NCBI RefSeq assembly: GCF_000195955.2
Contig: NC_000962.3
Coordinates: 1,080,001 to 1,112,000 of the forward strand
Reading direction: 5' to 3'
Length of the DNA stretch: 32,000 nt
From: Mycobacterium tuberculosis H37Rv
GTDB lineage: Bacteria > Actinomycetota > Actinomycetes > Mycobacteriales > Mycobacteriaceae
Shown: piece by piece, positions 14,408 to 17,400 of the stretch
How positions within the stretch are numbered: position 1 is the stretch's first letter
Layout of the letters: each line of letters opens with the position of its first letter
Position numbers: made by a program

Positions 14408-17400
14408 TTACCGCCGCGGTGGGTAACCGTTTATTCGGACGATCCCTGCCGTTCCACGCCTGGGCGCAGGCGCAAACCGCACCAACATTGGTGGAACGTG
14501 GTGCACACTGCACCTGGGGTTCTGCCCTCATCGTGTGTCAGCAGGCGAAACCCGCGCGGACGAGAACTCCTGCGTTAAGCAGCACAAATCGCTGCTCACG
14601 CTCACCGGTCAGCGCACTGAACCGGCCCCATGTCGACGACCGGTGAGGCGACCGCTCAACTCGTCGGCGTCAACTCGGCCATTGCCACCCTGGTCGCCGA
14701 TTCCTGTCCCACAGCCCCACCACCATCGGGGCGACAACCGTGAACTGACGGTCACGCCCGGGCCCAACCCCGGCCCGGAATTGGGCCGGGCCGTCTTCAA
14801 CCGGTATCCTCCACGTCATTGTCGACGCGATTGTCGCCGCGCCCACCTGCGTGCGGAAGCCCATACCAAAAGAGGAAGGCCCACCATGGCTGTGCCCAAG
14901 CGCAGAAAGTCGCGCTCGAATACCCGAAGCCGGCGCTCGCAGTGGAAGGCCGCCAAGACCGAGCTGGTCGGTGTGACCGTCGCCGGTCACGCCCACAAGG
15001 TGCCTCGGCGCTTGCTCAAGGCCGCCCGGCTCGGCCTCATCGATTTCGATAAGCGCTGACGCGCCGGCGGCCGACGATCATATGGCCGCCGAACACACCG
15101 AGCGCGCCGGCTCTCCGGTGATCACCGACACCGTGTCGTCGAGAGAGTTAGTGACGTAGACCACGCCGGTGACGGGGTTGACCGCCACCCCTGTCGGGTC
15201 GAGTCCGACGGGGATGGGGGAGCCGGTGACGGTGTTGGTGGCCGGGTCGATCACCGACACCGTGTTGCTGAACTGGTTGGTGACGTAGATGTTGCCGCCT
15301 GGGTTGACCGCCACCCCATACGCACCGGTACCGACGGGGATGGAGCCGGTGACGGTGTTGGTGTTCGGGTCGATCACCGACACCGTGTTGCTGTCGAAGT
15401 TGGTCACGAAGACCAGGCCGGTGACGGGGCTGACCGCCACCCCGCTTGGACCGTTGCCGTCGGTGATGGAGCCGGTGACGGTGTTGGTGACCGGGTCGAT
15501 CACCGACACCGTGTTGCTGCCCTGGTTGGTGACGTAGATGTTGCCGCCCGGGTTGACCGCCACCCCGTGCGGATCGTTGAAGCTGGCGTGGGTGATGGTG
15601 GTGACGGCGCCGGCGGCCCCACCGGCACCGCCGACCCCACCCGCACCGCCGATACCGCCGGCCGGGCCGCCGCCGGCACCGCCGGCGGTGCCGGCGCGGG
15701 CGAGGCTGACCGCGCCGCCGGTGCCGCCGGTCCCGCCGTCCCCGCCGTGTCCACCCACACCGATTAACCCGCCGTGACCACCAACCCCGCCGGTGCCACC
15801 GTCACCGCCGGCCACACCGAAGGTTGTGCCGGCTCCGCCGGCCCCGCCGACACCACCGGCCCCGCCGTTGCCGAACAGCCATCCACCGGCGCCGCCGGCT
15901 CCGCCGTTCGCGCCGGCCTCAAAGGGTAGGCCCTGGCCGCCAGCTCCGCCGGCCCCACCGTTGCCGATCAACCCGGCCGCACCGCCGGCCCCGCCGGCCT
16001 GCCCGGGTGCCCCCGACCCGCCGTTGCCGCCGTTGCCCCACAGCCACCCGCCGTTACCGCCGGCTTGCCCGGTCCCGTCGATCCCGTTCGCGCCGTCGCC
16101 GATCAATGGGCGCCCGGTCAGCGACTGAACGGGTGCGTTGATCGCATCGAGCACGTTCTGCAGCGGTGTTGCGCTGGCCGCTTCGGCGACCGCGTAGGTG
16201 CTGCTAGCTTGGCTTAAGGCCAGCACGAACCGTTCCTGGTAGGCCGCGACCTGCGCGCTGATCGCTTGATAGTGCTGGCCGTGGCTGCCGAACAGCGCCG
16301 CGATCGCCGTTGACACCTCGTCGTGGGCGGCGGCCAACACCTGGGTGGTCGCCGCCGCCGCGGTGTTGGCGGTGTTGATCGCCGAGCCGATCCGCGCCGC
16401 ATCGGCCGCGGCTGTGGACACTAACTGTGGGGCCACGTTGACAAACGACATCGAAATCCTCCTGACCGCGACGATGTTGAGATGCGGGCGGCCCACCGCC
16501 TGTTACCCCTGCGGTGGGTAACCGTTTATTCGGACGATCCCTGCCGTTCCACGCCTGGGCGCAGGCACAAACCGCACCAACATTGGTGGAACGTGGTGCA
16601 CACTGCACCTGGGGTTCTGCCCTCATCGTGTGTCAGCAGGCGAAACCCGCGCGGACGAGAACTCTTCCGCCAAGCAGCACAAATCGCCCTACTCTTGACC
16701 ACCAAACAAAACCCGTCCATGGGGCCAATGTGGCTGATGTGGCTAAACCTCGTCGAACAAACCCGCATACCACGGCGCGCCTCTCAGGCCAGTCTCAGGC
16801 GCTGCGACGACACTGGTGTCCGTGCGAATTCTTGTCGTTGACGACGATCGTGCGGTGCGCGAGTCGCTGCGCCGGTCGCTTTCCTTCAATGGCTATTCGG
16901 TCGAACTGGCCCACGACGGGGTTGAGGCGCTCGACATGATTGCCAGCGATCGCCCCGACGCGTTGGTCCTGGATGTCATGATGCCGCGGCTGGACGGCCT
17001 CGAGGTGTGCCGTCAGCTCCGCGGCACCGGCGACGACCTGCCGATTCTGGTGCTGACCGCGCGCGACTCGGTGTCCGAGCGGGTGGCCGGGCTGGACGCC
17101 GGTGCCGACGACTACCTACCAAAGCCGTTCGCCCTCGAAGAGCTGCTGGCACGGATGCGGGCGCTGCTGCGCCGCACCAAGCCCGAGGATGCCGCCGAGT
17201 CGATGGCCATGAGGTTCTCCGACCTGACGCTGGACCCGGTAACCCGCGAAGTCAACCGTGGACAGCGCCGGATCAGCCTGACCCGCACCGAATTTGCATT
17301 GCTGGAGATGCTGATCGCCAATCCGCGGCGAGTGCTGACGCGCAGCCGTATCCTGGAAGAGGTATGGGGATTCGACTTTCCCACCTCGGGCAACGCGCTG

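Follow-up and report, generated by a model that had tools for sequence, protein, structure and literature searches.

Between PE_PGRS17 and rpmF in Mycobacterium tuberculosis H37Rv lies a 114-nt spacer followed by an orphaned gene end, and here we examine what these sequences are and how they arose. All coordinates are positions in a window of 32,000 nt, the whole stretch of DNA analysed (NC_000962.3, positions 1,080,001-1,112,000, forward strand), which spans the Rv0976c-Rv0987 region according to an open reading frame (ORF) listing and public gene tables. The genes concerned are listed below, with coordinates from the gene tables and, for PE_PGRS18, also from the alignment of the two copies.

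10343-13144, plus strand: PE_PGRS16
13361-14356, minus strand: PE_PGRS17 (Rv0978c), left-copy paralogue of PE_PGRS18
14670-14864, minus strand: Rv0979c, annotated, 64 amino acids
14886-15059, plus strand: rpmF (Rv0979A), the functional gene for ribosomal protein L32 (Pfam Ribosomal_L32p; 81-93% amino acid identity to outgroup L32)
15078-16451, minus strand: PE_PGRS18 (Rv0980c), right copy
16816/16822-17508, plus strand: mprA
17508-19022, plus strand: mprB
19066-20460, plus strand: pepD (Rv0983), functional
after pepD, plus strand: moaB2

PE_PGRS17 and PE_PGRS18 are known to be a tandem duplicate subject to recurrent gene conversion (Karboul et al. 2006, PMC1762029), and their duplication and conversion are also known from PMC12046097. 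Both genes occur in M. canettii, and neither is found in M. marinum, M. ulcerans, M. avium paratuberculosis or M. leprae (PMC1762029). The same study calls Rv0979c and rpmF 'non-associated' genes between the duplicates; it does not mention pepD, and it describes no truncated rpmF, orphan PE_PGRS16 tail or breakpoints.

Within the window, the left segment 13096-14592 is collinear, in direct orientation, with the adjoining right segment 14700-16687, and beyond the region upstream of the PE_PGRS genes (14592/16687) this homology collapses. The parts of the two copies, of the spacer and of its source are as follows.

13096-13144, plus strand: true 3' end of PE_PGRS16, its last 16 codons and stop, where the left copy of the unit has its proximal boundary (2 differences from the M. 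shinjukuense orthologue)
13145-13253, plus strand: left intergenic region, decayed (80.6% identical to 14749-14885, with 30 gap columns)
13254-13322, plus strand: rpmF' remnant, 23 initial codons of an additional L32 gene (4 substitutions relative to rpmF 14886-14954, about 94% identity)
14357-14592, plus strand: region upstream of PE_PGRS17, a duplicate of 16452-16687 (228/236 identical, 96.6%), at whose end the left/right homology stops
14593-14607, no strand assigned: 15 nt, too few to be placed (9/14 gapped matches to 16688-16703; nothing convincing against pepD 19897-19911)
14608-14649, plus strand: pepD fragment 1, residues VSALNRPVSTTGEA, with a 1-nt insertion (35/42, z 10)
14650-14703, plus strand: pepD fragment 2 (48/54, z 22)
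14704-14748, plus strand: orphan PE_PGRS16 tail, dead last codons and stop (40/49 identical to 13096-13144)
14749-14885, plus strand: right intergenic region upstream of the functional rpmF, which has kept the ancestral sequence (aligns closely with the M. shinjukuense PE_PGRS16-rpmF spacer)
16452-16687, plus strand: region upstream of PE_PGRS18, the right counterpart of 14357-14592
19912-20090, plus strand: source segment inside the functional pepD, whose distal end at 20090 is the putative other duplication breakpoint (blastn, shuffles, outgroup comparison)

The two copies differ unevenly along their length. PE_PGRS17 and PE_PGRS18 are 95.7% identical in coding sequence over aligned columns, reaching 98% in the PE domain, and the left and right PE_PGRS16 tails are 81.6% identical (40/49). 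The left intergenic region carries deletions of 11 and 17 nt relative to the right copy. Additionally, rpmF' has lost its 3' part, and homology picks up again at the PE_PGRS 3' flank; this loss had been put at about 130 nt by an earlier sequence-only reading of the window (the first-pass annotation) and is here estimated at roughly 120-130 nt.

The spacer itself is made of recognizable local sequence. Searching 14560-14790 against the entire window on both strands (blastn, word size 7) returned, as the top three non-self matches, two pieces of pepD and the end of PE_PGRS16, followed in fourth rank by the known homology of left and right copies ending at 14592/16687. Fragment 2 (14650-14703) matches pepD 20037-20090 at 48/54 positions (88.9%, E 9e-13), the orphan tail (14700-14763) matches 13096-13159, that is, the PE_PGRS16 end and its 3' flank, at 51/64 positions (79.7%, E 5e-11), and fragment 1 (14608-14649) matches pepD 19912-19952 at 35/42 positions with one extra base (83.3%, E 7e-6). 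Smith-Waterman scores were compared with those of 1000 dinucleotide-preserving shuffles, giving 42 for fragment 2 (shuffle mean 10.4, maximum 17, z 22), 38 for the orphan tail (mean 9.1, maximum 16, z 20) and 26 for fragment 1 (mean 10.9, maximum 19, z 10); none of the 1000 shuffles attained the observed score for any of the three segments. The alignments against shuffled controls that the first-pass annotation had called for therefore bear out its matches, with some adjustment of their ends. Its first match (14608-14650 to pepD 19912-19953) is recovered as given above, and its second (14654-14703 to pepD 20041-20090) holds with an earlier start at 14650/20037. Likewise, the internal loss that it set at 85 nt is real and measures 84 nt, and the orphan tail that it began at 14707 is present, with homology already detectable from about 14700-14704.

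Both pepD pieces lie on the same strand as pepD, in pepD order and collinear with it, immediately 5' of the orphan PE_PGRS16 tail. The 84 nt absent between them correspond to pepD 19953-20036, or 28 codons, including GNSGG, the catalytic-serine motif of pepD's protease family (HtrA-like S1C). The start of the tail homology overlaps the end of fragment 2, and the counterparts of pepD 20090 and PE_PGRS16 13096 meet at about 14700-14706. The matching pepD segments lie 5.2-5.4 kb downstream of the scar, 3.2 kb past the end of the right-copy homology at 16687. Coding integrity of the pepD remnant is lost: it has a 1-nt insertion, it retains 95 of 1395 nt, the GNSGG-bearing 84 nt are gone, and some of its substitutions affect first and second codon positions at which 64 orthologues do not vary. 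Judged from this arrangement, the joint of pepD to the PE_PGRS16 tail is well supported as a head-to-tail duplication junction, whose breakpoints apparently fall midway through pepD and within the final 16 codons of PE_PGRS16. The duplication spans 14700-20090 in right-copy coordinates, 5391 nt or about 5.4 kb.

Comparison with other mycobacteria places the arrangement in the tubercle bacilli. A scan of a genome collection based on MprB returned 80 loci, none of them from the M. tuberculosis complex, M. marinum or the closest relatives, and M. shinjukuense, M. lacus, M. riyadhense, M. marinum/ulcerans, M. spongiae and M. sp. SM1 were added by protein look-ups; exact look-ups of RpmF, Rv0979c and MprA matched only contigs of the M. 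tuberculosis complex. The 80 mycobacterial species of the scan have a single Rv0976c-rpmF-mprA-mprB-pepD-moaB2 series with no PE gene and no spacer, and M. lacus, M. marinum/ulcerans, M. spongiae and M. sp. SM1 are likewise single copy, without PE gene or spacer. In M. shinjukuense and M. riyadhense, a large PE_PGRS16 orthologue lies between Rv0976c and rpmF (96.7% and 86% amino acid identity, respectively, in the C-terminal domain), with no PE_PGRS gene between rpmF and mprA, no PE_PGRS17/18, no spacer and no duplication. Altogether, about 90 other mycobacterial species are single copy and without the spacer, the outgroup state that the first-pass annotation had anticipated, and no outgroup examined carries the spacer without the duplication. 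Furthermore, PE_PGRS18 is absent from every non-tuberculous species examined. Among loci of the M. tuberculosis complex, 29 of 30 have the 114-nt spacer without any change. In metagenomes, separate scans for the junction and for the element upstream of PE_PGRS17/18 gave 0 matches.

The PE_PGRS16 orthologues are 1076 amino acids long in M. shinjukuense (locus L091, 5670-8900) and 1381 in M. riyadhense (locus L095, 4661-8806), and M. lacus has none. The C-terminal identity of 96.7% in M. shinjukuense exceeds that of MprB (87%) and PepD (81%). A recent exchange of PE_PGRS16 with M. shinjukuense, which the near-identical tail might suggest, was rejected on the third-position divergence of the C-terminal part, which at 17% falls only slightly short of the 23-34% in neighbouring genes.

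The decay of the two copies can be polarized with M. shinjukuense and M. riyadhense, and it is complementary. The differences between the tails fall on the orphan branch: about 9 of 49 nt are altered in the right-hand orphan tail, and the true PE_PGRS16 tail (left), with only 2 differences from M. shinjukuense, is evidently under constraint. In the rpmF upstream region, it is the right copy that stays close to M. shinjukuense, and the left copy is full of substitutions and deletions. Each copy has thus kept exactly the part still joined to a working gene, as a tandem duplication with a breakpoint inside the 3' end of PE_PGRS16 predicts.

The pepD remnant differs from M. tuberculosis pepD by 12 substitutions and 1 insertion over 95 sites. 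Three of the substitutions, at 19933, 20081 and 20039, fall on codon positions 1 or 2; at the first two sites, all 64 outgroup orthologues match pepD, and at 20039 the remnant base occurs in 0 of 64, so that these changes represent decay on the remnant branch. At 19947, 20055 and 20076, by comparison, M. tuberculosis pepD is the one that has changed, the remnant having the same base as M. shinjukuense and M. lacus. At 20042, 20049 and 20070, the remnant and M. tuberculosis pepD have in common states that few of the 64 outgroup orthologues show; the nearest relatives are split at these sites (for example, M. shinjukuense also has C at 20042), and the shared states are only suggestive of an origin on the M. 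tuberculosis lineage.

Over the 95 sites, three-point branch lengths come to 6.5-7.5 on the remnant side and 4.5-5.5 on that of M. tuberculosis pepD after the duplication, the distance between M. tuberculosis and M. shinjukuense being 12 on those sites; at third codon positions, these two species diverge by 17-34% in neighbouring genes. Such values would place the duplication early on the branch of the tubercle bacilli, once this had parted from M. shinjukuense and M. riyadhense, a rough dating that draws on few sites, and they indicate an event far older than the M. tuberculosis complex. The decay of the non-functional halves supports the old age that the first-pass annotation had assigned to the event. 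The actual age of the duplication shows in the unconverted remnants, at 80-89% identity, and the high identity of PE_PGRS17 and PE_PGRS18 fits the recurrent gene conversion reported for the pair (PMC1762029).

Taken together, the spacer and orphan tail probably represent the junction scar of an old head-to-tail tandem duplication in the lineage of the tubercle bacilli, a molecular fossil with no evident function at present. The order of events that we infer would begin with the insertion of PE_PGRS16 between Rv0976c and rpmF, a state still present in M. shinjukuense and M. riyadhense, followed by insertion of a PE_PGRS gene between rpmF and mprA. A tandem duplication would then have copied a segment that starts with the final 16 codons of PE_PGRS16 and ends about two thirds into pepD, joining 20090 to the PE_PGRS16 tail. 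Subsequently, the left copy would have retained the PE_PGRS16 tail, attached to its gene body, together with PE_PGRS17, and would have lost most of rpmF', about 3.2 kb of mprA'-mprB'-5' pepD' and 84 nt within the pepD remnant. The right copy would have retained rpmF with its upstream region, PE_PGRS18 and mprAB-pepD, its PE_PGRS16 tail decaying. Gene conversion since then would hold PE_PGRS17/18 and their upstream regions at 96-98% identity, leaving the unconverted remnants at about 80-89%.

A large duplication followed by step-wise deletions is, in our estimation, a moderately likely course. The first-pass annotation proposed an original unit of about 5.4 kb that included mprA and mprB; the homologies and outgroups uphold its junction and span, and the second mprAB that it entails may plausibly once have existed, but no trace of it and no two-copy genome were found. 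The missing stretch that it gave as about 3.3 kb (16687-19911) is likewise real, with a size of about 3.2 kb (16688-19911). Several observations weigh against a duplication of this size with later losses. The left copy holds no mprA or mprB trace in the blastn search of 14560-14790 against the window, and no genome with a second mprA or mprB or a longer pepD' remnant was found among about 90 species and 30 complex loci, M. canettii and M. decipiens not being among them. Moreover, the left/right homology ends at 16687, and the rpmF-mprA spacer that can be aligned with outgroups (M. marinum, M. riyadhense) starts at about 16708-16718. The supposed 3.2-kb deletion would therefore start some 20-30 nt from the insertion edge of PE_PGRS18 as the outgroups set it, an unexplained coincidence that a deletion model does not predict. 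At its right endpoint, the deletion leaves only 179 nt-equivalents of pepD, and one random deletion would seldom take out almost exactly the non-PE_PGRS part. Additionally, decay is uneven, at 6% for rpmF', 13% plus an indel for the pepD remnant and about 19% for the tail and intergenic region, all on small counts.

Two considerations favour step-wise loss. Such loss is not ad hoc, because the left copy has other deletions (11, 17 and about 120-130 nt), which show that erosion by deletion was at work there. Furthermore, selection that kept the PE_PGRS17 promoter and dropped a redundant, autoregulated two-component system would place the deletion endpoint in that short interval.

A one-step origin, in which a second mprAB was never present, would give the same sequence, and we hold it to be possible, if rather doubtful. 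In one version, serial template switches of the kind known from microhomology-mediated break-induced replication (MMBIR) or fork stalling and template switching (FoSTeS) would have copied to about 16687-16703, jumped to 19912-19952 and 20037-20090, and returned to 14700. In the other, a 2-kb tandem duplication (14700-16687) by end joining would have captured a short pepD fragment as filler. Complex MMBIR/FoSTeS junctions with templated insertions occur in yeast, humans and some bacteria; to our knowledge, no natural example has been established in mycobacteria. The scar resembles such junctions in having short same-strand pieces from a few kb away at a duplication joint; its own joints are too decayed for microhomology to be scored. 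With lengths of 42 and 54 nt, a shared orientation and a source 3.2 kb downstream, the pepD pieces are typical of templated insertions at complex junctions, and a single step would also agree with a left/right homology that stops almost at the edge of the PE_PGRS cassette, with the missing mprA/mprB trace and with the lack of an intermediate among the genomes examined. However, it would need three switches, or a capture plus a later 84-nt deletion, in what is meant to be a single event; microhomology at the three joints (14592-14608, 14649/14650 and 14700-14706) is not demonstrable after about 15% decay; and the left copy shows independent later deletions.

The spacer might instead be functional, either as part of a coding Rv0979c or as a regulatory element for PE_PGRS17 or rpmF, with an incidental similarity to pepD. 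Such a role would sit well with the annotation of Rv0979c in most complex genomes and with the invariance of the spacer in 29/30 complex loci, but invariance is uninformative in a near-clonal complex, and Rv0979c itself argues for a different view. Its reading frame is antisense to the last 34 nt of pepD fragment 2, to the orphan tail and to 116 nt of the rpmF upstream region; the C-terminal third of the ORF lies opposite two dead fragments that are unrelated to each other. Of 5.8 billion proteins searched, the only matches were variants from the M. tuberculosis complex, in two clusters, with no homologue outside the complex. In M. shinjukuense, the frame is closed: it has no ATG there and stops at the PE_PGRS16 stop region, and its extension in M. 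tuberculosis depends on a 1-nt deletion. Frames of this size are also common, the window containing 263 stop-to-stop frames of at least 64 codons. Rv0979c is called in most annotations of the complex and omitted in at least one, that of locus L087; its GC content by codon position (65/60/75) does not discriminate. A search against Rfam gave noise only, with no family matched. On these grounds, a functional spacer appears improbable.

Rv0979c is itself probably a chance antisense open frame and hence spurious, as the first-pass annotation had held; the frame covers the scar in part (14670-14864) and does not span it exactly, as had been claimed. Alternatively, Rv0979c could be a translated de novo gene, an idea to which we give little credence. 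In that case its frame would have come together only once the duplication had occurred, on the antisense strands of three unrelated pieces (the rpmF upstream region, the dead PE_PGRS16 tail and the dead pepD fragment), and a lineage-specific ATG and the 1-nt deletion would have opened it. A distinct minus-strand ORF at 14609-14800 had no matches in a protein search.

Least of all do we expect the pepD-like pieces to stem from another HtrA-family gene, acquired horizontally or situated elsewhere in the genome, instead of the adjoining pepD: the remnant shows much the same identity to pepD from other species (85-90%) and from M. tuberculosis (83-89%), and the best-match search for the source was made within the 32-kb window, but such equal distances are expected of an old duplication, the remnant is collinear with pepD, the other side of the junction is also local sequence, and the states at 20042, 20049 and 20070 are shared with M. 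tuberculosis pepD and rare among the 64 outgroup orthologues.

Returning to the tandem duplication, the event is the same as the PE_PGRS17/18 duplication of Karboul et al. at the same locus (PMC1762029); unlike in that account, rpmF and Rv0979c here form part of the duplicated unit, together with pepD and rpmF remnants and the orphan tail. In the literature library searched, no paper was found linking PE_PGRS17 or Rv0979c to a pepD remnant and only two name Rv0979c at all, and the supplementary tables of PMC6736058 and PMC11237670 contain nothing on Rv0977-Rv0980c. The breakpoints, the pseudogene fragments of pepD and rpmF and the orphan tail seem not to have been reported before.

Tandem duplication followed by complementary decay is an ordinary kind of event, and no new kind of biological system is revealed. 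In mycobacteria, DU1/DU2 of bacillus Calmette-Guérin (BCG) and PPE38/PPE71 are tandem duplications with direct repeats of several kb and a unique head-to-tail junction, later subject to conversion or to collapse by unequal crossover. These cases are recent and near-identical, whereas the scar described here is old, with remnants at 80-89% identity and one copy mostly eroded. A likeness to their collapse is seen in locus L112 of the M. tuberculosis complex (GCA_004109195.1, SBTZ01000001.1), unless it is an assembly artefact. There, 8184-10001, corresponding to window 13866-15740, holds a single hybrid PE_PGRS gene of 409 amino acids between PE_PGRS16 and mprA, and the scar, Rv0979c and a functional rpmF are lacking. 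The cause is either unequal crossover of PE_PGRS17 with PE_PGRS18, with loss of the sole intact L32 gene, or a collapse of the assembly; a second contig similar to L112 exists.

The scar would fix the breakpoints and the original span of the duplication behind PE_PGRS17 and PE_PGRS18, a pair that serves as a textbook case of gene conversion and as a phylogenetic marker in the tubercle bacilli. It assigns rpmF and 'Rv0979c' to the duplicated unit, where they would no longer count as unrelated inserts, and it raises the possibility that an ancestor of M. tuberculosis briefly possessed two mprAB-pepD envelope-stress modules. For annotation, it argues for flagging or removing Rv0979c and for recording an rpmF pseudogene and a pepD pseudogene fragment. 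Moreover, the joint of pepD to the PE_PGRS16 tail offers a shared-derived marker for placing close relatives such as M. decipiens. Were Rv0979c translated after all, it would be a datable gene birth from a duplication scar in a tubercle bacillus.

Several further observations concern the duplicated parts and their surroundings. The truncated rpmF copy (13254-13322) lies in a plus-strand ORF, 13162-13368, and some annotations, such as that of locus L107, call a 68-amino acid ORF there. At 2 of its 4 differences from the working rpmF, rpmF' agrees with M. riyadhense; given its 6% divergence next to about 19% in the adjoining sequence, it may have stayed intact for long or have been partly converted. 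A GC-rich hairpin follows the PE_PGRS16 stop in M. shinjukuense (L091, 8898-8960) and in the right orphan copy (14746-14805), and the left copy (13142-13190), different in sequence, still folds (CCCCUCCCU...AGGGAAGGGG, -23.6 kcal/mol). It may be a terminator kept through paired changes; the hairpins after both PE_PGRS16-type stops fold, but none is significant against shuffles (z -0.7 to -1.5), and a terminator and promoter scan found nothing. In locus L089 (GCA_047302485.1, CP159542.1), about 168 bp comprising the PE_PGRS18 start and upstream sequence (window 16393-16562) are gone, and PE_PGRS18 is called at 477 amino acids.

Further downstream, ABC transporter and MacB-AttH genes (equivalents of Rv0986-Rv0988) lie near mscL in M. 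riyadhense (L095, 14437-18938) and M. spongiae (locus L109, 14240-18733), as in M. tuberculosis, and M. shinjukuense, M. lacus and M. marinum are without them at that position. In the window, these genes occupy 21803-25109 and have a third-position GC of about 60% vs about 80%, a low value that fits horizontal acquisition.

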